Positions 1 through 64,000 of a DNA stretch of 64,000 bases are shown one piece after another. The DNA comes from a virus (lineage: Duplodnaviria; Caudoviricetes). The DNA lies in IMG/VR virus record IMGVR_UViG_3300012808_000024, positions 4,965 to 68,964 of that record; one strand, written 5' to 3'. The notes under the pieces were generated by a model. It was not told the DNA's origin, made no database searches, and was given only the letters and a program-made list of their open reading frames with translations. Made by a program: the position numbers and the translations under genes. Position 1 is the stretch's first letter; every line of letters starts with the position of its first letter.

Positions 1-2846
1 CCCGTCTCTGTGCCGATTGTCTTGCCGGACAGGACGTCTGCCGCAACGGCGTCTCCGTACTCACCCCCTTCACCCTGCAAGAAAAAATTTGAGCCATCGT
101 AGACGAGCGTGTAAACGGAACCTGCTTTGAGCAATCCAGCAGCCGGAGCAACACCGGATGGCTTGAGGATCGGCTTAGCACCTAATCCGTTGACATTGAT
201 CGTCGGATTAGCTCCATTCGCGACATGCATTTTGGCTGTTACGCGCAGCCCACCCGCGAGCGTAGGCACTGGGCTTAGTGTCAACGTATAGGCCGTACTG
301 GTGCCTGCCGTTGTCCCATAGCCGTTACGGTTAGCGCTAGTTGTCTCCAACGCTCCCAACCCTAACACTAATCCCAATTGGTCATCTCGCAGGTCATCTA
401 GATCCAACCGCAAGTTATCGATATGCGCCCCGTCCTCCGTCTGATTACGGTTGATTACGTCCGCACGCCCCGTCAACCTCGCAATCTGCTGCGTATTGGC
501 AGATACCGCAGAGCCTATATTGCCCGCGTAACTGACTGTAGCAGCGTTGATGCCCGCTGAATAGGTGTATCGGTCTAGGGCGATGTAGGTGACGTAGTAA
601 TCGGCGTTAGGATCACGGTCTACTGACGTTATGCTTGCTGATTGATTACCATAGGTAGGTATATTGACGGTATGATTGTTAAGTTGCCACTTCACGTCAA
701 TACCTCCATCCTTGTACACAGCGAGTATCCGATCCACGCGCAAAGACAATTTGGTGCTGACGTTGGCTCCATTGATGTAATAGCGCCCATCTGATACATA
801 ATAAGATGGATTAGCCTTCTCCCGCAGCACCGCCCCCTCTTGCATCGTCAGCGCATTAACCCCCGGATGCAGGTTAATCACGCCCTCGATCCTCGCAGGC
901 TCTATGACAGGCTTAGCGAGCTGGTATTGCAGCGTGCCGTAGCTTACCCAGCCGGGCGCTTTGTTGGCGGCAACGTAGGCTTCGCTTTGCGTGGCTGGCT
1001 CTGAGCCATCGAGATTGGAAATCCACCCCGTATAGGTCGTACCGTTACTGTTACGCGCCCTCCAGCCATTGAGCAGCGCCTTGATGGCGTTAGGTGTGGG
1101 GTTAATACTGTCTATCCATCCGCTTATGCTATTAGGGATTGATAGATACAGATTGGAAATCGAACTACGGAAATAGAATGCATCTCCAATTGTCGGAGAC
1201 AGAAAAGCCTCCGTCGAATTTCGTAGCGTTACCCCACCATACCGGATACCCACTCCGGTTCCCTCCACGTAATCGCCAATGTTAGTTTTGGGGATGGCAA
1301 TGCCCTTGTGTCCAGATGCCGAATACGAAAATACGGCAGGTAGCGCACCAGTAAGCTCAATGCTCCCTACCAGCCGCGTAACCTCCTGCGTAGCCAATCG
1401 CACCTCATCCCGTACACCTGACGGCAGGCTTCGCAAGGTTTCGTCAATGGTAATCCGCTGATCCTCTCGCGGCACGAATGACGGTGGAAGATCGGAGAGA
1501 CCGCCCAATATGATCAAAGGCTCCTTAATGTCTGCTGCTCCTGCCGAAGTGCTATAAAACGTTATCCGCACTTTGACGCAATCAGCGGGAGTAGTGAACG
1601 TTTTGGAGCTTACGCCAACTAGCGTGAGATTGCCCAAATAAGTTACCGTGCCCGCAGCGTTAATCGAATCGTAGTTAATCCGCCCCACTCCCGATAACTC
1701 AGCTTTAACGGTTATCTGGCTGCTTGGCGGCACGGTTATTTCGACAGTGCTTGCTTGGTTTGCTGCCGTAGCATTTAGCGTCATCTCATATGCTGACGTT
1801 GCAGCAGCATTGGCATGTAGCGACCAGCGCCCGAATGGCGGTACAAGGTTACGCCCCGGATGCTCCAGCAGTGCGCCCCGTAGCGATTGCATACCGTCGA
1901 CATACGGATAAGCTGCGTCGATTGCTTCGCCAGTCAGCGTTGTGCCGATGGCTGCTGCTTCTGACGCGCTGATTTCGTAGATACGGATTTCATCGAAATA
2001 AATAACCCCAGTTGACTCGCCTGTTGTGCCAATATACATCCTGAAACCGTTAGACGTAATAGTATTGGATGTCGGTATTTTCACGTGGACAAAATTCCAC
2101 GCCCCGACGACCAGCCCAGACCCGGCCGGACTTGTTGCGTACCTTAAAGCTGCCCCTCCTGAATCAAATAACCTTATAGTAAATCCCCCGCTTGTATAGG
2201 ACTCAACATACAGCCACGCCCCAACTAGATAACATTTCGTTGGATCAAGCTTATAGTTGTAGTCTTTATAGGCAAGTGCATGGGAATTTGAGGCGACAAC
2301 CTTTATCGAGCTTGTTCCACTCCGCTTCTGAGCCGTTGACACCGATACACTTGCATCGGCCTGAAACGGTGTTAAGCTTTCACAGCCTCCATCTTTGCCG
2401 AGCAGGTTAAGATCCGTCCGCCCGTACACATACCCATCCAATAGGCTCGCTTGATCTGTTTCGATCTTGTTAACCCCTCGCTGGAGCTGCGTGGTGAGGG
2501 TGGCGGCTTCTTCGGTCGCTTCCGCCAGCGCCGTAATATTATCGACCATGTTGTTATGATCAGCAGCCGTATAGTACCGCGCTACCTTCGTGCTAACTGG
2601 CCAGCTCCGCGCAGTCGTCCCGCCGAACCCCCGCGTGCATCCTGTCAACGTATTACCGGATTTGCCCGTGTATTGAATCGTCTCCGCGTTACTGTCTGTG
2701 CCGATCGTAATCAAGCCGGGCGCATCCGGTATGGTACTAGCCGCCACGGTCAGCAGCGGAATCGTAGTGACTGAATCGTTAATAGCCGCTGACAACTCTG
2801 TAGGCGACGAGTTAGCAACGGCTTTATACATCGGTTTAAGTTCCAC
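1..2846 (-). CDS. Large tail fibre / receptor-binding protein, runs off the left edge
   Basis: GTG at 2846 with GGAGG 9 nt upstream. Open frame to window start, so not in the ORF track. Reads VELKPMYKAVANSPTTELSAAI...CTRGFGGTTA, then a CBM-like segment (..IYFDEIRIYEI), ending ..NPTINVNGLGAKPILK..VYDGSNFFLQGEGG. Confidence 0.85.
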   Translation of the reverse strand, partial: MELKPMYKAVANSSPTELSAAINDSVTTIPLLTVAASTIPDAPGLITIGTDSNAETIQYTGKSGNTLTGCTRGFGGTTARSWPVSTKVARYYTAADHNNMVDNITALAEATEEAATLTTQLQRGVNKIETDQASLLDGYVYGRTDLNLLGKDGGCESLTPFQADASVSVSTAQKRSGTSSIKVVASNSHALAYKDYNYKLDPTKCYLVGAWLYVESYTSGGFTIRLFDSGGAALRYATSPAGSGLVVGAWNFVHVKIPTSNTITSNGFRMYIGTTGESTGVIYFDEIRIYEISASEAAAIGTTLTGEAIDAAYPYVDGMQSLRGALLEHPGRNLVPPFGRWSLHANAAATSAYEMTLNATAANQASTVEITVPPSSQITVKAELSGVGRINYDSINAAGTVTYLGNLTLVGVSSKTFTTPADCVKVRITFYSTSAGAADIKEPLIILGGLSDLPPSFVPREDQRITIDETLRSLPSGVRDEVRLATQEVTRLVGSIELTGALPAVFSYSASGHKGIAIPKTNIGDYVEGTGVGIRYGGVTLRNSTEAFLSPTIGDAFYFRSSISNLYLSIPNSISGWIDSINPTPNAIKALLNGWRARNSNGTTYTGWISNLDGSEPATQSEAYVAANKAPGWVSYGTLQYQLAKPVIEPARIEGVINLHPGVNALTMQEGAVLREKANPSYYVSDGRYYINGANVSTKLSLRVDRILAVYKDGGIDVKWQLNNHTVNIPTYGNQSASITSVDRDPNADYYVTYIALDRYTYSAGINAATVSYAGNIGSAVSANTQQIARLTGRADVINRNQTEDGAHIDNLRLDLDDLRDDQLGLVLGLGALETTSANRNGYGTTAGTSTAYTLTLSPVPTLAGGLRVTAKMHVANGANPTINVNGLGAKPILKPSGVAPAAGLLKAGSVYTLVYDGSNFFLQGEGGEYGDAVAADVLSGKTIGTET

Positions 2847-3817: not shown

Positions 3818-6800
3818 CTAACACCGCCACCTCCTCCGATTATTGCCCGGCGAAGCATCTCCGCCGTAGCCTCGCCTGCGTTGCGTCCATAAGCGTTAAG
3901 ATCAACGTTATCCTCAATCGTAGGCTCATTAACCTGCATACCTACAAGTGTTTCGATATGGACGGTACCCGCCGCAGCCGCACGACCTCCGACAAGCTGC
4001 GTAATCTGCTCTGGAGTTAACACAACCTCGCCCCGCCGTAGGATCGCCGTCAGTTCGTCCGGCATGAGCATTTGACCGACAGAAAACGGCTGTTCGCCCG
4101 CAATGCCTCCGGTATGATACAGCGGCACGCTGTCCTTATACCACCGTCCCTCGCCGCTGTTGTACGTGGCTCCGACCTGTGTACCTAACCGCTGATTCTC
4201 CGCCGCCAGCCGTTGCTTGCCCGCCGCGTCTGCCGATTTCCAAGCGTTGCTATTCGCTTGCATTTGGTAGACGAGCGATTGCTGATACGGGTCGATTGCC
4301 GGGGCCGCGGCCGCCGTAATCGAGGCCATTTCCGATTTGAATCGCTCCATTTCCGCTTTGATTTTGGCGTTAGTTTCGACAAATGCGGCGAACCTCTCGT
4401 CTTCGGTCGTCTGATAGATCGAAATGAAATCGCCGTTGAAGTCTTCTATCGTCGCCTTGAGGTCGCTGTACCACGAGTCAATATCCGCCTTCTGACGATC
4501 GAGCGCCGCGAGTTTATCGTCCCGCTCGGCTGCCAGCGCCTTCTTATTGTCCTCGACGTCCATCTTACGGAGCTGTTCCTGTAACTCCTCGTACCGTTTC
4601 CGACCTTTTTCCGAGGTAGCAAACCGGTATTTCTCCGCTTCTTCTTCGATTTTCTTTCGGTCGCGGCCACGTTCGTACTCGTCAACGATGCGTAAAAGAT
4701 CGTCGTAATGATCTTTTGTCGCCTTCTTACGGACTTCTAGCCCTTCTAGTTCGGCCTTCCGCTGTTTGTCGATAGAGTCGATGACAGATTTCGTAAGCTC
4801 TTTCGTTGACTTCTCGGCATTCTGTGCAGCTTCCTTCGCTGCTTGCTCGTCTTGCTTACGGAGACTCATTCGGGCGTTGTACATTTCGCGATCCGCCCGC
4901 TTGTAAAAGTCGGAGTCCTTTTCATAACGGTTCCTGACCCGCGTCCATGCCGCTAGCTGCATTTCCGTAATGTCACGTTCCGATTCGCCCTTCTCCGTCA
5001 TGCGGCGCGTCTCCATGTCAATCCACTCGGCAGATGCGTCGAATTTGTCGCGGGCAGCCTTTTGTGCGGCCTTAGTTGCGTCTTCTTGGCGGCGGGTTTC
5101 GTCATCGGCGCGTTTCTTATCGGCAGCCGCCATTTGGTCGGCAAGTTGATTACGGCGCTTCGTGGCGTCGATCCAAATATCGTCGTACTTCTTGTGTTTA
5201 TCCGCCAGCGTGGCGAGAGCGGCAAGCTCCTGCTGTTCCGACATCTGATTGAGCAGCCGCTTCTTTTCGATATATTGGAGCGATGCACGATAGGATTCCT
5301 GTGCTATCTGCTCGGCCGTTTTTTCCTTCTTCGCCTTTTTGTCGCCGGATTTGTCTTTACGCAGAGAGCGCGTAAAGTCTACGTCGCCTTCGCCGCCTAC
5401 ACCAAGCCCTCCGCCCGTCCCGCTGAAATCGCTGCTCCAGTCTCCGCTATCCAGCTTTGCTAGTAGTCCGTTAATATCGTTGAGCGCGTTTGTGTACGTG
5501 CTAACTTCTCGTTCATAGGCGGTTTTTGTACCGTCAGTCACTTGGCGCATAAAGAGTGCCGCCGATTTGAGCGTAGGATTATCGCCCATTAGCCCGTAAG
5601 GATCGTCAGGCCCGGAGAACGTTTTGCTTCCAGACTCCGAGATGGCCGCCAGTGCTTTCAATTGTGTCTTTGCGTAATCTAGCTTTTGCTGCGTCTCAAT
5701 CCGCCAAGCTTCCGTCCGCTTCTTCGCGTTCTCAACGGTACTATTAACTGCGTCCTTTTCCGCGGTGATAAGCGACCTTACGCTAGACTCGTTGGTAATA
5801 ATCAGCCGACCGTTTTCGTCCAGTTCGGTACTTAATCCCGGTAACTTGTCAGTCAACTCTCCGACGACACGCGCAAGTTCTGATTTTTCTGCGGCGGTCA
5901 GAGTCGTTTGACGGGACAGCTCCGAGTATCTGTCGGACAGTTTCTCCGTCTGTTCGATCTGAGATTGTTTAGCAGCGGTGTCCTTTAGTTCCTCTTTCAA
6001 CAAGTCGGCTAAGGCAGGTATTGACTTTTGGATTTGACCGTTCAACTCTTCTATTCTGCGGGCTGCATCCTCTGGTGTTTTCACGTCAAACGTAACCTTC
6101 AACTGCTGTTCTACGTTCCGCAACTGTTGCTCCATCATGACGAGTTCGCTCGACTTACCCGCAATGACTCGCCGTGTATTCGCCCAAAACCCCTCCGGCT
6201 GTGCCTCGTCAATCTTCCGTACAAGTTCCGCCTGTTTTACGAGCAGGCCGTTCAGCGAGTCGATTTGGTCACGCAGATTATTTACGTCCTCTGCCGTGCG
6301 CTCGAATGGGGCTTTTTCAAGCTGCGCGTTGAATTCCGCTTGAGCTTTAGCTGCTTCTGACGCAGTGGCTCTGTAGGAGATGAACGCAGCTCCGAGAGTT
6401 CCCGCCGCTGCCGCTGCTACGGCAATCCACCCAAGGGAGGCTTTTGCGATTATCCCGGCAGCAGACAGTGCCTGTAGTGCCGCATACAGCCCGTAAATTC
6501 CCGTAATCAAAGTCCCGACTCCGCCCGTTAGTAGCGGAAAAGTTACGAGAAATACACGCAGACCCGAGTCCATCTCGTTAAACCCTAGCAACGCCCGCGT
6601 AACAGCTTCGGCAGCCGACCGCATGATCGGAATGAAGTCGTTACCTACCGTAATGCCCACGCCTTCTAGCGCAGATTTCATCGCGATTACGGAGCCGTTA
6701 AACGTATCGAGCTGAATGTCTGCGATTCGCTGCGCCGTGCCGCCCGCGTTTTCCAAGTCGGCCGAGAACCGCTTCAACTCGTCGGCTCCCGTATTGAGCA

Positions 6801-8037: not shown

Positions 8038-8457
8038 TTATCCCTCGCTGTTGCCGTCCTTGACTGGCGCTCGGAACCGGCCGAGAACGGCTTTGACGTT
8101 TTTTAGCGTCTGCTCCAAGTCGTTACGTTCGGCCGTCAGCCGGATAAACTCGATAATCTCATTTGGCGTAGCCTCATTGCGGATGTAGTCCGGCTCCAAC
8201 TCCGTAAGTACTGCAACGATGCGGACGGATTCGTCAATCGCCAAACCAGCCGCCGCGACGATAGCGGGTACAAATTGGTCAGAGTGTTTCGTTGCCAGAA
8301 CGGTAAGAGCGAGCCGAGGCAGTGATTCGATTACGCCGAATAATTCTTGCCATTTGGCAATCGTTAATTTCGGGATCGTTACCGGCTTGGAACCGATGGT
8401 CACCGCAGGAACGGCGGATTTATCGAATAATCGTGATATATTCACGGCAGTTTTCAT
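8038..8457 (-). CDS. Tail assembly chaperone (gpG-like)
   Basis: Between tail tube gene and TMP; contains slippery heptamer. Confidence 0.8.
   Translation of the reverse strand: MKTAVNISRLFDKSAVPAVTIGSKPVTIPKLTIAKWQELFGVIESLPRLALTVLATKHSDQFVPAIVAAAGLAIDESVRIVAVLTELEPDYIRNEATPNEIIEFIRLTAERNDLEQTLKNVKAVLGRFRAPVKDGNSEG
8098..8104 (-). other. Programmed -1 frameshift slippery site A-AAA-AAC
   Basis: CTA AAA AAC in frame; -1 frame is open into 8020..7733. Confidence 0.8.
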
Positions 8458-14210: not shown

Positions 14211-15823
14211 TAATCAACAACCTCAACGACTTCTGGCTCGCCATTAAACACACTGCCGTCTACGGTGCCGTTAACGCGCTTGTCGTCGGCCTGTATCCGC
14301 TCAAGGATTTCGGCCGCCTGTAAGTCGTCTATGCCATCCATCCGCTTGATTGCCGATGCTGCGTCAAGCGTAGCCATGTTGCCCGTCCTGATCTGATAGA
14401 CCTCCGCCTCCTCTTTCTCGTTGCGGGGAATACCGTCACGCCAGTTGATTTTTGGGTATACCGGCTCGTAAGGCGTATAGCCCGCTACGCCCTGGTTAGC
14501 GTAATTCTCCAGCTCCATTGCAGACCACAGCGCATCTCGTATAGCCTTGTCGATGTGTGTCCGAATACGCTTGACCTTGGATAATATCGGCATAAACCGA
14601 GCCTTGATCGCCGCGCCGTCCGTATGTGACGTGCCTGACCCGCCTTTGTCTGCGCCCGCTACAGTCGTGCCGAATAACCATTGCGGCGTCTCGGATTGCA
14701 TAAATACGATGGAGAGCAAAATGTCTAGCTCCTTAAATGCGCCTTCCAACTGCGATTCCCACGTCATATACCCCGGAACCACGTCATCTTTAGCTAACGG
14801 GATGTACCTTCCGCCTCCCCAACGGACTGCTGTTGTACCGTCGTCCTCGCTAATGTCATCGGGGCCGTAAGCGACCGGATCAGAGTGTTTCCACAAAATA
14901 TAGTCGATCTGCACGAGCCTGTCGTTGATGGCGGCCAAAACGGACTCGAGTTTCTCGATCATACCGGTTCCCTTCCAGTCCGTATCAATCGTCTTATACG
15001 GCGCATGGAAAACAAGCGGCCGATTAACCCCGGTTGCCACTACGTCCTCGTCCTTACCCGTAGGTACCGCTTCGTCAATTCGGAACACCGGGATCGGCAC
15101 GCCGAATTCGGTATTTACGCCAAGCTGCGTAACCTTGTACCGCTCATAGATGATAAATCCCGGTAAATGCCGCTCGACGACGAGATACGGCTTTGAGTTC
15201 GTTTTGAGTCCGGTTAACTTTGACGTAATAATAGACAGCGCGGTCGCTTCCGTTACCCATTCGACATAGGCGATATTGACCGCTTTAAACTTCTTCCGGC
15301 TGCCTCGGCTAAGCTCGGGGAACACGTAACAAGCGTCAACTGCTTCGAGGATTGCTTCGCGCTTTACGTCCGGTACAGGCAGCCCCGCCGCCTCGACTTC
15401 GGAAAAATCCTGCCGCGCCCCGTAATACGTTTTAATCCAACTGTCTCCGCGTATCCCGCTGCCCGTACCTACTTCGTGGATCATCTGAACAACGTCGTTT
15501 TCCTCGACAATCGAATTCAGCGCCTTTTGTTCGATCGAGTCGTCCGGGGTTCCGCTCTCAAACGTAGGCGGATCGCCTACCATCAAGTCTGCGGGCTTGC
15601 TTACAAGTACGTCCATTAGGTTTACGGCGATGTATAGTTTACCGAGTTGGCTCGCTACGGGCGTGTCCTTCAACAACTCCGTCGCCCGCTCGAATACCTC
15701 AAACAATTTGCCGTCATATATCGCCTCTGCTCGTTTGTACTTCGCTATCCGCTCAATATCATTTGGCGGCGGGTACTGCGCGCCCGGCTGAAACAATTTC
15801 GTTGATGTTACGATAGGGTCAAT
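14210..15823 (-). CDS. Portal protein (SPP1 gp6-like); start uncertain (ATT 15823 or TTG 15796)
   Basis: ERIAKYKR..IYDG, YIAVNL, W...LP.NEKEEA; position after terL. Track start 15979 overlaps the neighbouring gene and has no RBS. Confidence 0.9.
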   Translation of the reverse strand: MDPIVTSTKLFQPGAQYPPPNDIERIAKYKRAEAIYDGKLFEVFERATELLKDTPVASQLGKLYIAVNLMDVLVSKPADLMVGDPPTFESGTPDDSIEQKALNSIVEENDVVQMIHEVGTGSGIRGDSWIKTYYGARQDFSEVEAAGLPVPDVKREAILEAVDACYVFPELSRGSRKKFKAVNIAYVEWVTEATALSIITSKLTGLKTNSKPYLVVERHLPGFIIYERYKVTQLGVNTEFGVPIPVFRIDEAVPTGKDEDVVATGVNRPLVFHAPYKTIDTDWKGTGMIEKLESVLAAINDRLVQIDYILWKHSDPVAYGPDDISEDDGTTAVRWGGGRYIPLAKDDVVPGYMTWESQLEGAFKELDILLSIVFMQSETPQWLFGTTVAGADKGGSGTSHTDGAAIKARFMPILSKVKRIRTHIDKAIRDALWSAMELENYANQGVAGYTPYEPVYPKINWRDGIPRNEKEEAEVYQIRTGNMATLDAASAIKRMDGIDDLQAAEILERIQADDKRVNGTVDGSVFNGEPEVVEVVD

Positions 15824-25118: not shown

Positions 25119-25462
25119 GACTCGACCACCTCCACGGAAGCGAAGTCGTCGAATCGGTACACATTACCGGAATGCTGCGTCAGGTTGTCGTACCCATACT
25201 CGAACAATTTTTCGACGGTAATCATCCCGTCCTCATGATCGGCATCGTCGCAATCGGTGGAAACGACCGCATCCCATTCCATTCGATTTAGGATGAGCGG
25301 GAGGCCGAGGCGTTTCGCGGCTTCGATTCGATGCGAGCCCTCCAGCGCGAACGCTGTTTCCCCGTCATACCACACGTTAACGGTTACGCTGCCTACTTTT
25401 GCGGCGTGCTCCATTACCGCCAATAGATGCTGCTCGTCATATCGGTTAATAGTTAAAATCAT
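25115..25462 (-). CDS. ParB/Srx-like N-terminal domain protein
   Basis: LEGSHRIEAAKRLGL resembles the DGxHR..AA..LG motif. Confidence 0.55.
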   Translation of the reverse strand: MILTINRYDEQHLLAVMEHAAKVGSVTVNVWYDGETAFALEGSHRIEAAKRLGLPLILNRMEWDAVVSTDCDDADHEDGMITVEKLFEYGYDNLTQHSGNVYRFDDFASVEVVES

Positions 25463-25629
25463 TTCGTCAACCCCTTATAATTTCGTTTGCGATCACGAAA
25501 CACCACTCGGCATGTTCCGTCTTCGCTGTCGTCCATGATCCGCAGCATACCTTCGGTGTCTACAAGAATCATGGGAACGATCAATTTTTCGTCGTACACG
25601 GCGTAGTCTAGGTGCCGCAGCCCTTTCAC
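25459..25629 (-). CDS. Small hypothetical protein (56 aa)
   Basis: GGAGGTGA RBS before GTG 25629, preceded by GAGACC-CTTCG-GGGTCTC hairpin. Confidence 0.6.
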   Translation of the reverse strand: MKGLRHLDYAVYDEKLIVPMILVDTEGMLRIMDDSEDGTCRVVFRDRKRNYKGLTK

Positions 25630-25700
25630 GGCGTTCACCTCCCGGAGAGACCCCGAAGGGTCTCCAATAGTATAAATCGGAAGGAGCCGGAGCCCCAATA

Positions 25701-25928
25701 TTAAATGCAGATCGTCTGACCCCGGAAGCAGTTGCCCATGTATCGCCACTCACCGTCTACCTTGGCGGCAGTGTGATAGGTCGCCCGCCAATTACCTTCG
25801 ACGTCTGGCCGGTGGCTGTACGGCTCACCAAACTGCACGAGGTCTGCTCTATGGGTTGCAGGCGGCAGGATGTTTATCCAATCGTCCACTTCCTCCGGGG
25901 TCATGATGTCCCCGATACTCTTAAACAT
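25701..25928 (-). CDS. Small hypothetical protein
   Basis: GGAGG RBS before ATG 25928. Confidence 0.65.
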   Translation of the reverse strand: MFKSIGDIMTPEEVDDWINILPPATHRADLVQFGEPYSHRPDVEGNWRATYHTAAKVDGEWRYMGNCFRGQTICI

Positions 25929-26007
25929 TGTTGGTTCCTCCAATTTGTGTTAGGATGGAGGAGGGAGTTAGCCGCTCCCTCCGTTGTGCTTATTGAGATG
26001 TAATGTG

Positions 26008-26226
26008 TTACTTCTGCTTACGTTGTCGTTGCCGCTGTATTGCGGCGTAACGCTCGTAAGCGAGTTGTTCTTCGTCGGTTAATGCGAACCGTCGAAGGAT
26101 GGCAGCTTCTTCATCCCGGAACACTTCCCGAGTCACCTTGCCGAGTCCCATTCGGTCACGTGCGGCTCGGAGATAGTGTTCTCTTTTTTGCATTTTATCG
26201 AATGCTCTAATTGTATGTTCGTTCAC
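26008..26226 (-). CDS. Small hypothetical protein
   Basis: GGAGGTGA RBS; first gene after promoter. Confidence 0.7.
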   Translation of the reverse strand: MNEHTIRAFDKMQKREHYLRAARDRMGLGKVTREVFRDEEAAILRRFALTDEEQLAYERYAAIQRQRQRKQK

Positions 26227-26302: not shown

Positions 26303-26336
26303 AATAAAAATCCCGCCTAGCCTAAGCCGGGCGGGG

Positions 26337-26365
26337 TTGTGAGCTGCGGAATAATATGTTACTAT
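26337..26365 (+). promoter_or_regulatory. SigA-type promoter for the repeat-containing small RNA
   Basis: TTGTGA (26337) -17 nt- TGnTACTAT (-10 at 26360-26365). Confidence 0.7.
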
Positions 26366-26387
26366 CTACTCATAGCCTTATGGCTTG

Positions 26388-26465
26388 GTCGCACCCCTAG
26401 AGGGCGCGTTGATTGAAACGAATCATTTTTCCGAAAAGCCCTTGTGAGGTAGCGCCTCTAGGGGC
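26388..26465 (+). CRISPR. Solitary type I-C repeat + 29-nt spacer-like segment + degenerate partial repeat (mini-array / Racr-like); no cas genes
   Basis: GTCGCACCCCTAGAGGGCGCGTTGATTGAAAC (32 nt, 26388-26419) fits the I-C pattern GTCGC-hairpin-GCGTGGATTGAAAC; second copy GTAGCGCCTCTAG-GGGC at 26449-26465. Confidence 0.8.
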
Positions 26466-26470
26466 TTTTT
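26435..26470. terminator. Bidirectional rho-independent terminator
   Basis: AAAAGCCCTTG-T-GAGG-tagcg-CCTCTAGGGGCTTTTT. Confidence 0.75.
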
Positions 26471-27074
26471 AGTTTGGCCAATTCCTCCGGTACAATATTA
26501 GCTGCCTGCGGCCGTCTGGGTAACTAAATGAAATCTCCACCACCTCACCCGCGTACATATAAACGGTCACCTCATCGTCAGCGCTTAGTTCTCTGTAAGC
26601 TTCGGCATGCACCAAATCCCCGTGCTTTTTGCCGGCCTCTGATAGAGGCATGCGGAGAACATCCGACTTTGCAATATAGTCCTCGTGATTCGGGTAGTAC
26701 CGCTTGCCGACCCACGAAGCCTGTCTGCGGATAGAATCCGCTGCCCACTTAGGCATGTGTAAGAGATGGTGACCTCCGCAATTATCACATCCTAACTGCA
26801 ACCCAGTGCCGTCCGATCCTGTCGGGCAACACGACCCGTCAAGGTTGGTCGCAAAGCATCCGGGGCAAAAATCTACGTATTCAGCCGTCATTTGTTGGTA
26901 CCTCCTAATGCCTTGTGCGAGGCTATTGATATATTCCGTCTTCCACGTAACTATCTCCGTCAACTGGTACCCCTCTTTGACTATTACCTCTATGTCTTCG
27001 AGGAGTTCTATTCTCCGTACCCGTCGTATGAGCGGATACAGAGAATAGGCCGATATTAATAGAATCCGAATCAT
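26469..27074 (-). CDS. Cys-rich (Zn-binding) hypothetical protein; alternative start ATG 26891
   Basis: CPGC, CC, CDNC; ATGA coupling at 27074, GGAGGT RBS at the internal ATG. Confidence 0.7.
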   Translation of the reverse strand: MIRILLISAYSLYPLIRRVRRIELLEDIEVIVKEGYQLTEIVTWKTEYINSLAQGIRRYQQMTAEYVDFCPGCFATNLDGSCCPTGSDGTGLQLGCDNCGGHHLLHMPKWAADSIRRQASWVGKRYYPNHEDYIAKSDVLRMPLSEAGKKHGDLVHAEAYRELSADDEVTVYMYAGEVVEISFSYPDGRRQLILYRRNWPN

Positions 27075-27808
27075 ACCGTCATGAACCGCGTTGTACCGAC
27101 GATCCCGCCGGACTCATTACGCACAGCCCCGGCTCCGGTGTCCGGTACCAGAATATCCGTGCGGTGGATGCCGTCTGCATCGAGGCGCTGCGCCACTACC
27201 AGCGATACAATGTAGTACGTGTTAGGCTGCGGATCGGGAAGCCCCGTAACGGCTCCGTACTCGCTGCGGAATACAGGGTAGCCGCCAACGGACGGAATCT
27301 CCACATACGATTGACTCACACGCGCCATTTCAGGCGCTCCCGGAAGTGTCATAAGCACCTCCGACTTGTCCGAGTTGTAAAGCGTGAAGGCGTGCGGTGT
27401 AAGGTTGATGAATACCGGTGGCTCCTGGAGACGCTCGATAAGCGCGTCAATTGCTGCAATATCGTCGGACATATCGTCCAAATCTCCAAACTCGATACTA
27501 AACGAAACTAGTGAATCACGCTGGTCATCGAGAAACATGCTCTCGGAGTGACTGCTAAAATTGATCGATACATCCTCGAAATCATCATTACGCAAAACCT
27601 TGTCCAGGTATACTTGCGCGTAACAACCGTCCCCATCACCATCAATCGAGAAATTGTCCTCACCGATCCCATCGACGATAATGTCGAACACCTGCTGCTT
27701 GTCACGGCGCTTGAGTTCGCGGAAATCACGTTCTCCTCCCGCCAAGATAGCCTCGCGTGCAGCCGCCAATACCGTAATCAGATCCGTTTTAGTCATAGTC
27801 ATGTTCAT
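27071..27808 (-). CDS. Two-domain protein: acidic N-terminal domain + NLTPH-motif domain (putative Crn4-like ring nuclease)
   Basis: FINLTPH..ARV..GLP.PQPNTYYIVS.VVA..R.DILVP..VRNESG.IVG. Confidence 0.6.
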   Translation of the reverse strand: MNMTMTKTDLITVLAAAREAILAGGERDFRELKRRDKQQVFDIIVDGIGEDNFSIDGDGDGCYAQVYLDKVLRNDDFEDVSINFSSHSESMFLDDQRDSLVSFSIEFGDLDDMSDDIAAIDALIERLQEPPVFINLTPHAFTLYNSDKSEVLMTLPGAPEMARVSQSYVEIPSVGGYPVFRSEYGAVTGLPDPQPNTYYIVSLVVAQRLDADGIHRTDILVPDTGAGAVRNESGGIVGTTRFMTV

Positions 27809-27914
27809 TCTCCTTTGCCCGTCTCTGCGGGCTTTAAATAGTATGCCTTATGGCACCCAGCGAGTACACAACGAGACTGACGTTATGTACTCTAGCGTGT
27901 CACAAGTTAATCAA

Positions 27915-28121: not shown

Positions 28122-28227
28122 TGCTACATCTCCTTCTGCCCATTCCGGGCTATGTAGTATACCTTACGGTATCCATTGGGAACACGACCGGAGTCATGCG
28201 CCCTAGCATATCGTAATGTAGCTAATG

Positions 28228-28725
28228 TTACTCAGTTTGTGGCAACTTTTTCTCTACCCTAGCGAGCCACTTTTCGATTTTGTTCTTTACTTCCTCGGGC
28301 AAGTATCCGCCCGGAAGTAACTCTTTTAACTCGTTTATTGCCTGGATTACGGAATGGAGATCCCAATAATCCAGTGTTCCGGTTATTCTCTCTGTGATGC
28401 TGTCTATACAGGTTTCCGCCCTATATAGACAGCTTACGATTTTTTGTTTTTTCTTCGCTTGTTCTATCAACCTCCCTTCTTCCTCCATGACGACCCGCAA
28501 GGAGTTAGAAATATGATGCTGGTCTAAATCATCTAACCGGGAAACCAGTGGAACCAAAATGCAATGGAGTTTCGCGTAACCATCACTAAAGTATTCCGCG
28601 ACTCCAGGAACCAGCGTAACTGCGTTCTCGGCTTTCCAGTACGCCTCTTGTGTCTCGGCGCGTAAAACCTTTAATTCCTGTACCAACATATTTCCTTCTT
28701 TTTGTAACTTCATCTTCATCTTCAT
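28228..28725 (-). CDS. Helical hypothetical protein
   Basis: AAGGAG RBS before ATG 28725. Confidence 0.65.
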   Translation of the reverse strand: MKMKMKLQKEGNMLVQELKVLRAETQEAYWKAENAVTLVPGVAEYFSDGYAKLHCILVPLVSRLDDLDQHHISNSLRVVMEEEGRLIEQAKKKQKIVSCLYRAETCIDSITERITGTLDYWDLHSVIQAINELKELLPGGYLPEEVKNKIEKWLARVEKKLPQTE

Positions 28726-30691: not shown

Positions 30692-32242
30692 TTATGTTGC
30701 CTCTTGTAACAGCCTAACTTCGCCTATATCGCCAAATTCGCGTGCGACCCATTCCCGTGCTACCGAACTATTACGCTGCTCGCCCTCTGACGGAATCCAC
30801 CCAAAATGACTACCGCAGATGTAATTGAGGCGTGAAAGAAGTAACTCATTTTTGAACCACACGTGGATTGTTCCTTTAGAGAACATTTTAAATCTGAGCG
30901 TGTCGTTCTCGAACTCGCCTCGGTTAATCGCTGTAAATTTTCCGCTTACGGCGGGGTCGATTAGTTGGAGCGCTTTTATAATATCGTCAATCCACGCGCG
31001 CACCTCGTAATTAATGCGTGTGTAGTCGTCGCTAAAATCCCATCGGTCGAACGCTGCGTACTTAACCGGAATTATGATTTTCCGATTGATTTTATACGAG
31101 CTATTCGTCCGCCACCCGTTATAGTAATGTACATTTGACGAGTAGCTTGTCATATGGTGGTCTGTAATCCGCTGAAAAATCGAAACTACGCTATCGATGA
31201 GAATATCCTGCCGGTTTGCGCCCAATGCCATCAAGAGCGTGCGAATATTTGAGAGGTTAATTTCCAACTCGCCTGCTGATTCTAATTTTCGGTTCAGCTT
31301 TGCGATAGCATCGTTCGTCAGCATTTTTCGGAAGTCGTCAGTACCGAGTATCAATTTCCAATACTCGCTACGTAGTTTATCGATTTCGTTTCGCAAATCC
31401 TCCGAATCAACCGCTTTTCGCGTCTGGACTACGTATCCAAGCGAGTTTGATCGCTCTCGGTTGACGTTAGACACATAACGCAAAAACGATTGCTTTGCGA
31501 TCGACGTGCGGTGTGCCTCTCTTATCAGACTTACCGCTGTCTCGTACTCGGCTACTAATCGTTCTACGTCACGTAATCTTTCCGCCAACTCCGTGGGTTT
31601 GACATAAGTGGACATCGCTGTTCCCAACTCTGCCGCGAGGTCAGACGGTTCACGAGCGGTGAAAAACGGAATCTTATCGTATATAGACTTTCCGCCGCCA
31701 TCCTTCGGAACCTTGACGTGAATTAGCGCTATTTCTACGTCTGTTTTTCGTTCAGCATCGGAGAACGCCCCGCTTACGTAACGTATGTCAGCGTTATATA
31801 AATTCAGTTTACGTATCAACTCTTGCCGCTTCGTTGAAAATGTGTTGTCAATCGTTTCTCTGTTTACAATCGCGAATATTTCGCAATATGAAAGTTGATT
31901 TTCTGCGAGATCCAGCGCTTTCAATACGTGGGCAACACCGTCTGAGAATGGGGGATTCATAATTATAAAGTCGTATTCTTTGTACGTCTCATAAGTTAAA
32001 AAATCGTCCCAAACGACAGACACGCCAGCGCTCATTAACGTGTCAACAAGCCGAGGATCGTTTTCAATCGCATCAATCCGAGGTGGGTCGCCGTGCCTGC
32101 GGCTATCTCGAATATACCGAATAATGTCCCCTTTACCAGCGGATGGCTCTAATATACGGCCGTAAATGCGCGCACCTTCCGTTAAATTATCGAATACGTC
32201 CCGCGGTGTCGGGTAAAAATCCTTATTATCCGTATATATCAT
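30692..32242 (-). CDS. N6-adenine MTase-like domain + DUF4942
   Basis: DFYPTP, ILEPSAGKGDI (motif I), IIMNPPF (motif IV); C-terminal F..GT.H..FKN. Confidence 0.8.
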   Translation of the reverse strand: MIYTDNKDFYPTPRDVFDNLTEGARIYGRILEPSAGKGDIIRYIRDSRRHGDPPRIDAIENDPRLVDTLMSAGVSVVWDDFLTYETYKEYDFIIMNPPFSDGVAHVLKALDLAENQLSYCEIFAIVNRETIDNTFSTKRQELIRKLNLYNADIRYVSGAFSDAERKTDVEIALIHVKVPKDGGGKSIYDKIPFFTAREPSDLAAELGTAMSTYVKPTELAERLRDVERLVAEYETAVSLIREAHRTSIAKQSFLRYVSNVNRERSNSLGYVVQTRKAVDSEDLRNEIDKLRSEYWKLILGTDDFRKMLTNDAIAKLNRKLESAGELEINLSNIRTLLMALGANRQDILIDSVVSIFQRITDHHMTSYSSNVHYYNGWRTNSSYKINRKIIIPVKYAAFDRWDFSDDYTRINYEVRAWIDDIIKALQLIDPAVSGKFTAINRGEFENDTLRFKMFSKGTIHVWFKNELLLSRLNYICGSHFGWIPSEGEQRNSSVAREWVAREFGDIGEVRLLQEAT

Positions 32243-33486
32243 TGCTCAACCACCTTCCGTAATTGCTGCGCGAGCGCGATGCCTAGCAAATAAGCGACGC
32301 GCGATGCGACTCCGTTGCCGACAATACGGTATTGCGCGGATAGCGAAATCGAGTCCGGCAACACGTAAGAGTCGGGAACGGATTGGATACGAAGGCATTC
32401 GCGGACGGTAAAGCGGCGCGGCTGTGTCGGGTGAATCTCCGCATGATCAAGTCGACATACGTTTACTGTGCGGCCAGCCCCGTCCATGTCCGCAACGTAT
32501 CCGCGTTGGTTCGAAAGCAAGTGTTCTGGCTTTACTGTAGTCGCACGAGTTTGCACATGGTTTTGAACGTTTGCGTCGTTTGGATGCGGTGTATAGTTTG
32601 ACGGCATAGGACGACTGTTGTGGGTCTTTATCGTTGGTGAAGGCTCGTCAACATTAAATACTGCCTTCTTACCGTAATTCCTTGGATGATTGTAGTAGTA
32701 ACTCGTAGGTTCCGGCAAGTCTCCGATAGCGTCTCGAATTACCTGCGTCCGATAAAGAGCGGCGTCCGGTTCGGGGAACTCAAACGTAAACCCGAGGTCC
32801 TTCCGAATCCCAACGATGAATACGCGCTCCCTTTTCTGCGCCACTCCGTAATCCCAAGCGTTGACGATCCGCCAGCTTACTTCATACCCGATCTCGTCAA
32901 ACTTCGTTAGTAATGCGTCAAATGTCGGCCGGTGCCGTTTACTTACGAGCCCTTTCACGTTCTCGAAGATAAAGGCGCGGGGCTTCTTCCGCTCGATCAA
33001 CGCCAGATACGTCCAGACGAGTTTGCCCCGTTCGCCATCTTCGCCTGCGCCCGAACCAGCGACGGAGAAGTCCTGACACGGCGGGCCTCCTGCAATTACG
33101 TCCGTGTCCGGGATCGAATCGAAGTCAATCGTGATAATATCGCCTTGGATTACGTGGTCGCCTAGATTGTAACGGTAAGCGGCAACGGCATTCTTGTCGA
33201 AATCGTTCGCCCAAGATAATGAATAGCCAGCCCGCGCGAGTCCTGTCGCCATAAGGCCGCCGCCCGCGAATACTTCCGCTACCGACAGTTCATTATTCGC
33301 AAGTTGAGGAGTTACGTCGTAGTGTCGTATGTTTATCGTCTCCTTTTCGTTGAGTGTATCGAGAACATTTTCCGCCTTTGCCCTAACTACTCGCGCTGGT
33401 TTATCGAACGAATCGTTATATCCGATAAGGTGGTCGCGCGAATGTCGGTATTGTGCGGTAGTCAACGGGTATGTCGTGTGATTCAC
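32239..33486 (-). CDS. dcm: DNA cytosine-5 methyltransferase
   Basis: FAGGG, GPPCQDFS, ENVKGL, QKRERV, RECLRIQ, QYRIVGNGV; no cognate endonuclease adjacent. Confidence 0.95.
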   Translation of the reverse strand: MNHTTYPLTTAQYRHSRDHLIGYNDSFDKPARVVRAKAENVLDTLNEKETINIRHYDVTPQLANNELSVAEVFAGGGLMATGLARAGYSLSWANDFDKNAVAAYRYNLGDHVIQGDIITIDFDSIPDTDVIAGGPPCQDFSVAGSGAGEDGERGKLVWTYLALIERKKPRAFIFENVKGLVSKRHRPTFDALLTKFDEIGYEVSWRIVNAWDYGVAQKRERVFIVGIRKDLGFTFEFPEPDAALYRTQVIRDAIGDLPEPTSYYYNHPRNYGKKAVFNVDEPSPTIKTHNSRPMPSNYTPHPNDANVQNHVQTRATTVKPEHLLSNQRGYVADMDGAGRTVNVCRLDHAEIHPTQPRRFTVRECLRIQSVPDSYVLPDSISLSAQYRIVGNGVASRVAYLLGIALAQQLRKVVEQ

Positions 33487-62965: not shown

Positions 62966-64000
62966 CTAGCGATGTGTCCTGCGGTCTTTGCTTAACTTGT
63001 TCGTGATATTGTGGATAGCCGAGTACTTACTGTGCATTTCCTTTACGGATTTTTTGGACAAGTGCGTATATCGCATAACCATGCGTAAATCGCGGTGTCC
63101 AAGCATTTCCGCCAAGAACCGAACCTCTCCGCCATTTTCTAAATAGATCGTCGCCGCGCTGTGTCGGAATAAGTGAGGGTAAACGTTTATCTCCAGACCA
63201 GCCTTCTCTGCGTATATCTTTATACGATCCCGCATCCGATCATCTGCTATGTTCTCTCCGTAATTCGTTAAGAAGATGAACTCACTGTCAAAATCTTCGT
63301 TCTCCTTAATTAAATCCGCGAGAAGTCTTAACGTCCCTTTTGATATTGGAACTTTTTTTGACCGCCTGACCTTAACATTATTTGCGGGAATCGTAATAAG
63401 TTCAAGGTTAAAATCTATATCAGATACTTTAATCTTTACAGCTTCGTTCAGTCGAAAGAATCCGTCGATTAGCACATTCATAAATACGAAGTCGCGGAAC
63501 CCAACGTATGTCTTCCGATTCGGCATTTTTAGCAGTCGCTCAAGCTGCTCTCCTGACATAACCTCTATCTCTGACTCAGGTTCAATTACCGGTTTGATTT
63601 TCGCCATCGGATTATTTTGAATATAATCCTCATCGTAAAGAAAATTGAACATTGTGCGTAAGCCTTTCAGCCGAGTGTTTACTGTGACGGGTGACAGCCC
63701 GACTGTTTTGTCTTTCTCTGCTTTGTGTGCGTGCCCCTCCCATTTCCGTTTTTCTTTGAGCATGTAGGAAATATACGACCGCACTAATTCTGTAGTTACA
63801 ACGTCAACCTCTCGCGGTAAATTTTGAAGGGATAGATAATCGCATAAGAATCTATAATTTTCTTCATAAGTTTGTAGTGTTCGGTTCGACACACCTTCGG
63901 CAACCTTTGCGTTAAAGAAAGTGCTATATAGGTCGTCTAGGGAAACTAGGTTTGACTGTTTTCGTGTGTTTTTATATTGTCGCCCAACTCGCTTATCCAT
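62966..64000 (-). CDS. int: Tyrosine recombinase / phage integrase
   Basis: F.R..E, K, PHLFRH, LGHRDLRMVMRY catalytic residues; N-terminal SAM-like domain. Confidence 0.95.
   Translation of the reverse strand: MDKRVGRQYKNTRKQSNLVSLDDLYSTFFNAKVAEGVSNRTLQTYEENYRFLCDYLSLQNLPREVDVVTTELVRSYISYMLKEKRKWEGHAHKAEKDKTVGLSPVTVNTRLKGLRTMFNFLYDEDYIQNNPMAKIKPVIEPESEIEVMSGEQLERLLKMPNRKTYVGFRDFVFMNVLIDGFFRLNEAVKIKVSDIDFNLELITIPANNVKVRRSKKVPISKGTLRLLADLIKENEDFDSEFIFLTNYGENIADDRMRDRIKIYAEKAGLEINVYPHLFRHSAATIYLENGGEVRFLAEMLGHRDLRMVMRYTHLSKKSVKEMHSKYSAIHNITNKLSKDRRTHR

Follow-up and report, generated by a model that had tools for sequence, protein, structure and literature searches.

What a single type I-C-like CRISPR repeat does in a provirus devoid of cas genes is the question raised by positions 26337 to 26470 of the window, that is, of the whole 64,000-nucleotide stretch of viral DNA analyzed here. 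Viral solitary repeat units (SRUs) have been catalogued in large numbers (2,103), 83% of which match the subtype of the host, and they are enriched beside acr genes (PMC10651486). The RacrIC1 RNA of a Bifidobacterium prophage inhibits a heterologous type I-C system (Camara-Wilpert et al., Nature 2023, PMC10651486), and the Cracr RNAs described by Liu et al. are regulators of viral origin that resemble crRNAs and act by silencing cas or toxin promoters, type I-C and short-spacer representatives included (bioRxiv 10.1101/2024.10.29.618823). The explanation favored here, held with about even confidence, is that the present unit would be a solitary-repeat (Racr-type) RNA anti-CRISPR, a decoy or competitor directed against the type I-C system of its host.

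The unit occupies a 240-bp intergenic gap between a minus-strand gene of 72 amino acids (26008-26226) and a gene of 140 amino acids (26469-26891), and is composed of the following elements, in window coordinates:

26305-26336: upstream hairpin CCCGCC...GGCGGG with an A-run, a strong intrinsic terminator on the minus strand
26337-26365, plus strand: promoter-like site of predicted function, with a -35 box TTGTGA (26337-26342), a 17-nt spacer and an extended -10 box TGtTACTAT (26357-26365)
26372-26387, plus strand: predicted leader of 16 nt, which starts at the putative transcription start and carries the 5' stem-loop AGCC-UUAU-GGCU
26388-26419, plus strand: solitary type I-C-like repeat of 32 nt, GTCGCACCCCTAGAGGGCGCGTTGATTGAAAC
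26390-26408, plus strand: repeat hairpin in the register of host repeats, with 3+3 bp flanking an A·C mismatch (dG -8.8 kcal/mol)
26409-26419, plus strand: repeat handle of 11 nt, UUGAUUGAAAC
26420-26437, plus strand: single-stranded tail of 18 nt, the start of a 29-nt segment proposed earlier as a spacer
26433-26470, bidirectional: terminator, a 17-bp hairpin with a U-run, which also ends the convergent 140-aa gene

The original prediction described a stand-alone unit, running from promoter to terminator and built on a 32-nt type I-C-like repeat, and this description stands: the repeat at 26388-26419 fits the type I-C pattern and is present as a single copy, in the window as in the entire 68,964-bp provirus record. 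The sequences quoted for the 16-nt leader and the 29-nt segment are correct, and both boxes of the proposed TTGTGA-17-TGnTACTAT promoter are found at the positions claimed, 22 nt 5' of the repeat. The site scores 8/12 to consensus, and because of this score a stricter sigma-70 scan makes no call there. No credible open reading frame covers the gap, the longest being of 20-43 aa; no Rfam family reaches its gathering score in the window, with just chance-level hits (E up to 10) around the unit. The absence of cas genes noted earlier for the window extends to the provirus, where tblastn with the Cas proteins of a host-like genome finds none. The repeat is lone and intergenic, with neither further repeats nor cas genes beside it, and the unit runs opposite to the surrounding operon, with terminators insulating both flanks. 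In the full predicted transcript, the pairs of the hairpin have probabilities above 0.9. On the strength of its sequence, the single repeat unit is a predicted small RNA gene that is real, well formed and evolutionarily maintained. A 10-bp long-range helix between the repeat core and an arm of the terminator was also considered and was rejected (ensemble probability ~0.002, 4.8 kcal/mol worse, not conserved in the homologous cassette of genome G049 described below).

The likeness of the repeat to type I-C can be followed with a search pattern made of the conserved I-C positions of the phage repeat alone, run on GTDB genomes and on IMG/VR. This pattern finds at least 120 loci in the former, nearly all of which are arrays, and at least 117 in the latter, and the likeness is therefore not due to chance. 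The phage copy is nevertheless divergent, with an A6·C18 mismatch in the middle of the stem, a CUAGA loop, and a U replacing G at the second handle position (position 23), which is G in all of the at least 237 real I-C loci among the matches listed. Among those same matches, the nearest real I-C repeats are at least four positions apart from the phage copy. The host-like genome G073 has three repeat variants, each sharing 25/32 positions with the phage copy, and other I-C repeats share 27-28/32. An exact or near-exact version of its core, with positions 6 and 18 left free, has no match in IMG/VR, GTDB genomes or JGI metagenomes, and a version that leaves the loop free but keeps T23 has none in IMG/VR. 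Resemblance to the host subtype holds in both sequence and structure, with the caveat of the A·C mismatch and of the U at handle position 2: the hairpin pairs positions 3-21 in the canonical register (-8.8 versus -10.4 to -11.7 kcal/mol for host repeats), the handle is identical to the canonical one at 10/11 positions, and the geometry of the cleavage site is retained. Due to the divergence of the repeat (25/32, A·C mismatch, U in the handle), recognition by a Cas5c of the G073 type must be considered putative, and the copy may be decaying.

The provirus is carried by a 125-kb soil-metagenome contig, where it lies between hbs (HU) and mtrB-hepS-menH-...-ndk-cheR-aroC-aroB, with a tyrosine integrase (window 62966-64000, minus strand) at its right end. 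The flanking chorismate synthase (AroC) is 99% identical to that of G073, a member of the Paenibacillaceae, 95% identical to those of G061 and G049, from the same genus, and 79-84% identical to those of named Paenibacillus and Saccharibacillus genomes; the predicted host is a Paenibacillaceae species. The host cluster upstream of which the provirus sits, hepS-menH-hepT-ndk-cheR-aroC-aroB, is accompanied by futalosine-pathway-type genes (MqnA, UbiA, UbiX-like).

Between two arrays, G073 carries a complete cas3-cas5c-cas8c-cas7c-cas4-cas1-cas2 operon, above NCBIfam cut-offs where applicable, and its I-C repeats, 154 in number, are spread over several arrays. The original prediction hinged on the presence, in a plausible host, of a type I-C locus with a matching repeat; the complete system is there, together with spacers against the phage, but the repeats are related at 25/32 positions and do not match exactly. 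At least eight of the 82 spacers read from G073 match the provirus, with 1-6 mismatches, and six have a 5' TTC flank. TTC is the type I-C PAM. One of the protospacers is located at 28294-28327 on the plus strand (30/34, seed intact, TTC PAM), and others at window positions 1129-1161, 5584-5616, 6109-6144, 8197-8235, 15401-15433 and 31107-31141, and at 4070-4102 of locus L122; one G073 spacer matches the provirus at 38/39 positions, with a CTC flank. By comparison, ~2,200 spacers from unrelated taxa give nothing against the provirus beyond chance matches of 15-18 nt, which, set against the at least 8/82 from G073, argues that type I-C immunity is a real pressure on this phage. The spacer matches also give the predicted host assignment of the provirus.

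A few other features of these hosts may be mentioned. Both G073 and G049 have Cas10-like matches that fall below the Csm1 cut-off, making a type III target in the host possible. Past the last canonical repeat of array A of G073, at L256 5025-5190, two strongly degenerate repeat-like units are followed by a terminator; they could reflect ordinary trailer-end decay or possibly a crRNA-like element. Many leaders of Paenibacillaceae I-C arrays harbor the motif GAGGTTCGC(G/A) ~55-60 nt 5' of the first repeat (L256 2715-2803, L257 5670-5758, L258, L049, L050, L272, L275, L280, L285, L286), as well as a palindrome, CCCTTG-N5-7-CAAGGG, ~15-40 nt 5' of it, and the two may constitute a leader-recognition or promoter element. 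No homology to the leader of the phage unit is found among 29 Paenibacillaceae array leaders.

Within the genus (ten genomes), BLAST with the region reveals a homolog of the cassette on contig 26 of G049, a sister species. It is located 3' of an endolysin gene in a baseplate-J-type (myovirus-like) prophage that is unrelated to the present provirus, and its neighbors include a tyrosine integrase and homologs of the Gp111-like, 96-aa and 72-aa genes of the window. Segment by segment, the G049 cassette compares with that of the window as follows:

Upstream hairpin: 26/32 identical
-35 box: 3/6 (TTTACA in G049)
Promoter spacer: 6/14, with the same length of 17 nt
TGn and -10 box: 7/9 (TGcTAATAT in G049)
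Leader: 15/16
Repeat 5' end: 7/7
Repeat core: 3/11
Repeat 3' end and handle: 13/14 (20/21 for both repeat ends together)
Tail: 10/23 columns, with a 5-nt indel
Terminator: 23/33

The core of the G049 repeat is that of G049's own array repeat minus 2 nt. The segment identities, which are those of two sequences, possibly of recent common ancestry, indicate that the chassis is conserved, that the core, in G049 at least, follows the local host, and that the tail varies; this is the pattern that would be expected for an expressed RNA working via its leader and repeat, not for a conserved guide. The consensus fold of both cassettes comprises three stem-loops with four compensatory pairs, three of which are in the terminator; there, the inner stem GAGG-nAGCn-CCUC is conserved, and the pairing of the outer stem is kept through three compensatory and two one-sided changes.

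The cassette has a narrow distribution. The pattern of leader plus repeat is found in one of 401 sampled Paenibacillaceae genomes (G049), BLAST of the unit over the same sample returns mostly CRISPR arrays, and the pattern of the leader has no matches in IMG/VR or JGI metagenomes. The sequencing runs listed as carrying the region include no RNA run and comprise two soil-metagenome DNA runs, one of which is the likely source, and their contigs contain no variant of the unit; IMG/VR holds no close relatives of the two adjacent proteins, and INPHARED yields no DNA match. The nearest cultured phages are distant (Bacillus phages Mgbh1 and PK2, and Paenibacillus larvae phages), and neither Mgbh1 nor PK2 has a I-C repeat. 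Two of G049's own I-C spacers match the SRU-bearing prophage region of contig 26, at 93808-93843 (33/36) and 66625-66658 (32/34). These self-matches are flanked by GTT and TGC, not TTC, and are mismatched at positions 7 and 3 of the spacers; they look like escaped or related-phage protospacers and are uninformative as to anti-CRISPR activity.

Three other explanations compete with a decoy. The earlier account gave the unit the anatomy of a mini-array, in which a degenerate second repeat (14/18 identical) is merged with the terminator; a phage mini-array of repeat, spacer and degenerate repeat would yield a crRNA that uses host Cascade-Cas3 against a competing phage or plasmid, a reading that we consider extremely improbable. 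Viral mini-arrays are a known class, as cited in PMC10651486, and the terminator region does align to the repeat at an offset of 29 nt, but the count is of 12/18 ungapped and 17/32 overall, where the best chance matches downstream of 70 viral I-C singletons reach 12-18/32 and true second repeats 23-28/32. The value of 17/32 is at the upper edge of background, and the putative second repeat is best read as the terminator hairpin (26433-26470) only. Moreover, no repeat-like segment is found downstream in the G049 cassette (best 14/32; 7-8/18 at the equivalent place), the 29 nt are shorter than all 82 measured host spacers (32-39 nt), and no protospacer is found in the provirus, in 300 compared loci, in three host-clade genomes or in IMG/VR, leaving neither the two repeats, nor the spacer of normal length, nor the mobile-element target of a mini-array. 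The unit shares with the viral mini-arrays and SRUs of Faure et al. (2019), to the extent that these are presented in PMC10651486, an orphan repeat directly 3' of a promoter in a virus genome, and differs from the mini-arrays cited there by the lack of a second repeat and of a spacer with an identifiable target. Viral contigs often carry single I-C repeats, some having a terminator 10-30 nt 3' of the repeat, as in the present unit. Alternatively, the repeat could be a decaying relic or recombination scar, acquired from a host array by phage-array recombination and drifting with no RNA function amid promoter-like and terminator sequences that belong to its neighbors. The divergent core, stem mismatch and odd handle base, all three absent from every sampled array, the hairpin weaker than those of host repeats and the rarity of the cassette (1/401 genomes) all lend themselves to this interpretation, and the 10-nt complementarity between repeat core and terminator arm could reflect templated mutation of the core. 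It is nonetheless very improbable: the whole cassette, including its promoter geometry and leader (15/16), is kept in a second, unrelated prophage, where the core matches the arrays of that host; neither copy has lost the repeat ends that Cas5c needs for recognition; and a unit that is opposite to the operon and insulated on both sides behaves as an autonomous accessory gene would.

Rather unlikely, in our view, is a Cracr-like short guide, in which the 3' product of Cas5c (11-nt handle, ~18-nt tail, and a terminator hairpin replacing the 3' repeat hairpin) would enter a shortened Cascade and lower expression of host cas3 without DNA cleavage. Viral crRNA-like silencers of cas genes are on record, I-C and short-spacer ones included (bioRxiv 10.1101/2024.10.29.618823); the handle, with 10/11 canonical positions and its cleavage geometry retained, is suited to such a role, and the kept handle and a seed match in cas3 would fit a guide equally well. 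The match concerned is the best TTC-flanked one of the tail in the I-C locus of G073, TTC-GAATCcTTgTTC, inside the cas3 ORF (L256:7603-7617): it is perfect at seed positions 1-5, 7 and 8, its score is equalled in the 20-kb locus by just 3 of 200 shuffled guides (p ~0.01), and the motif occurs once in the 6.3-Mb G073 genome. However, the match extends over ~10 bp, was found post hoc, and lies ~1.1 kb into the ORF, off the promoter, and the same motif also appears at a non-cas place of a sister genome, at about the chance rate; it amounts to a marginal lead, not a finding. In addition, the tail is not conserved between the cassettes (10/23), that of G049 has no comparable site in the G049 I-C loci (best 8/10, with seed mismatches at 4-5, reached by 24% of shuffles), and the terminator stem takes up half of the nominal 29-nt spacer. 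A guide against a cas promoter or a competing element, which the original prediction had envisaged, finds no target: there is no TTC-flanked tail site at the promoters of the I-C loci of G073 and G049, no target in the provirus and the 300 compared loci, and no site with up to three mismatches over 20 nt in G073 or G049, G061 having one 3-mismatch chance match; in IMG/VR, the tail pattern gives three chance matches that lack TTC and do not extend. What is left of that proposal is the one marginal seed match inside the G073 cas3 ORF. The likeness to Cracr RNAs and to host CreR/CreA crlRNAs lies in the repeat-derived handle, in a shorter-than-normal guide-like segment on a phage, and in the possible seed-length match to cas. 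The unit departs from them in that the I-C loci of G073 and G049 contain no site with at least 9 PAM-proximal matches at a host cas or creT promoter, which would mirror CreR/CreA, no host crlRNA counterpart turns up for it, a CreR/CreA-like RNA as possible template not being seen in the G073 locus, the sole candidate site, of marginal statistical weight, lies within the cas3 ORF, and the homolog does not preserve the guide-like tail.

The RNA decoy, the favored explanation, is supported by several observations read from sequence: the unit has the anatomy described above and recurs, conserved, in a second prophage; its repeat ends and hairpin register agree with those of host repeats; and the host clade possesses both an intact I-C system and spacers that target the phage. 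A small RNA of ~100 nt would be made from its own sigma-A-type promoter, and in it a 5' hairpin leader would be followed by a mimic of a I-C repeat, a short tail and a terminator. Host Cas5c would bind the repeat hairpin and the AUUGAAAC handle, and its cut would probably fall between 26408 and 26409, where the stem ends on its 3' side. The cut products, or the uncut RNA, could then sequester Cas5c and Cas7c, perhaps along with Cas8c, in complexes lacking any guide against the phage, and these decoy complexes would compete with real crRNAs, leading to weaker type I-C interference against the phage or prophage. We infer transcription, binding and cleavage by Cas5c, and inhibition alike. As in the Racr RNAs, a single repeat mimic is present on a (pro)phage without cas genes, a predicted promoter lies within ~250 bp of it (with the same geometry in the G049 homolog), the hairpin and handle resemble the repeat type of the host, in which the subtype is present, and a gene for a likely anti-CRISPR protein is found less than 1 kb away. 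Unlike RacrIC1, which is co-transcribed 11 nt downstream of acrIC5, the unit is predicted to be transcribed independently, with a promoter of its own, a 5' leader hairpin that is conserved, and a terminator; its repeat, furthermore, diverges to an unusual degree (25/32 positions shared with host repeats, a mismatch in the stem and a changed base in the handle), and its activity is putative. A more elaborate scenario, which we regard as distinctly unlikely, is that of a portable chassis, made up of promoter, 5' hairpin leader and terminator, which would move among unrelated Paenibacillus prophages, its core re-tuned to the I-C repeat of each host and its tail serving as a very short guide to hold host Cascade on the coding sequence of cas3. 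If it were true, one 100-nt RNA would both soak up Cas5c/Cas7c and silence cas3 from within its ORF.

The surroundings of the unit evoke the question of whether it is part of a larger anti-CRISPR locus, and involve the following features:

27071-27808, minus strand: 245-aa protein, whose C-terminal domain (~residues 133-245) is related to Crn4 ring nucleases, 600 bp from the unit
26375-26384: copy of the exact 10-mer GCCTTATGGC in the RNA leader
27845-27854: copy of GCCTTATGGC that abuts the -10 box of the Crn4-like gene
33248-33257: copy of GCCTTATGGC inside a C5-methylase gene
30692-33486: two DNA methyltransferases, within 6 kb of the unit
26469-26891, minus strand: convergent neighbor, for which the gene call is of 140 aa, not the 201-aa maximal ORF

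A putative ring nuclease had been noticed near the unit, and the Crn4-type domain of the 245-aa protein bears this out. Its three best PDB matches are Crn4a, Crn4b and Crn4 (E 0.0009-0.009); the segment INLTPH, identical to that of Crn4b, spans the conserved Thr and His, and a C-terminal Arg segment also matches. The protein has an additional N-terminal domain of ~130 aa, versus the 60-80-aa extensions reported for phage Crn4b. Phage orthologues of Crn4 with N-terminal extensions are reported, and probably serve as anti-CRISPRs (PMC12830947), and the 245-aa protein is likely an anti-type III / anti-cOA factor. Shared operators had been suggested as well, and the 10-mer GCCTTATGGC, with inverted arms GCC/GGC, is indeed common to the RNA leader and the promoter region of the Crn4-like gene, three copies being present in the window versus ~0.1 expected; the arrangement is compatible with an operator role, and GCCTTATGGC may be a shared operator. 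A similar palindrome, ACC-GTAA-GGT, abuts the -10 box of the 68-aa gene (~28159-28172). In view of the lone I-C unit, a host I-C system that targets the phage, the Crn4-type neighbor and the shared GCCTTATGGC, the description of the locus as an RNA and protein anti-CRISPR island is reasonable.

The unit would represent a fresh example of a known phage strategy, leaving the established principle unchanged. To our knowledge, the description of RNA anti-CRISPRs is recent (2023-2026), with few of them dissected in hosts other than Proteobacteria. The present setting is unusually complete, bringing together a host clade with type I-C, PAM-correct spacers against the phage, a second cassette and a Crn4-type neighbor, the latter suggesting a joint anti-type I and anti-type III island. 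The second cassette separates the parts that are constrained (promoter spacing, leader, repeat ends, terminator) from those that are swapped (core, tail), and the unit could serve as a test case both for the repeat divergence that Cas5c tolerates and for the distinction between decoy and guide.

The genes that frame the unit have features of their own. The 140-aa neighbor, which has no Pfam, PHROG or PDB match, belongs to a family of which six members were found, with an invariant zinc-ribbon-like N-terminal motif, CPGC...CxNCG, and SIRRQASWVGKRYYP; its AlphaFold model (pLDDT 57) is too poor for a fold search. For the 72-aa neighbor, the PDB sequence search came back empty. The pair formed by the 72-aa and 96-aa genes to the left of the unit (25459-26226, minus strand) recurs in prophage-like elements of G073, G049, G061 and G085 (L268 6996-8425; L267 6776-7189; L266 13428-14119). 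In G073 this pair is directly divergent from an Xre-type gene, and the 3.4 kb lying between them in the window, with the RNA unit and the 140-aa, Crn4-like, 68-aa, 185-aa and Gp111-like genes, therefore resemble an accessory block that was inserted. One G049 copy of the pair, on contig 82, lies ~0.8 kb from a decayed cas8c fragment.
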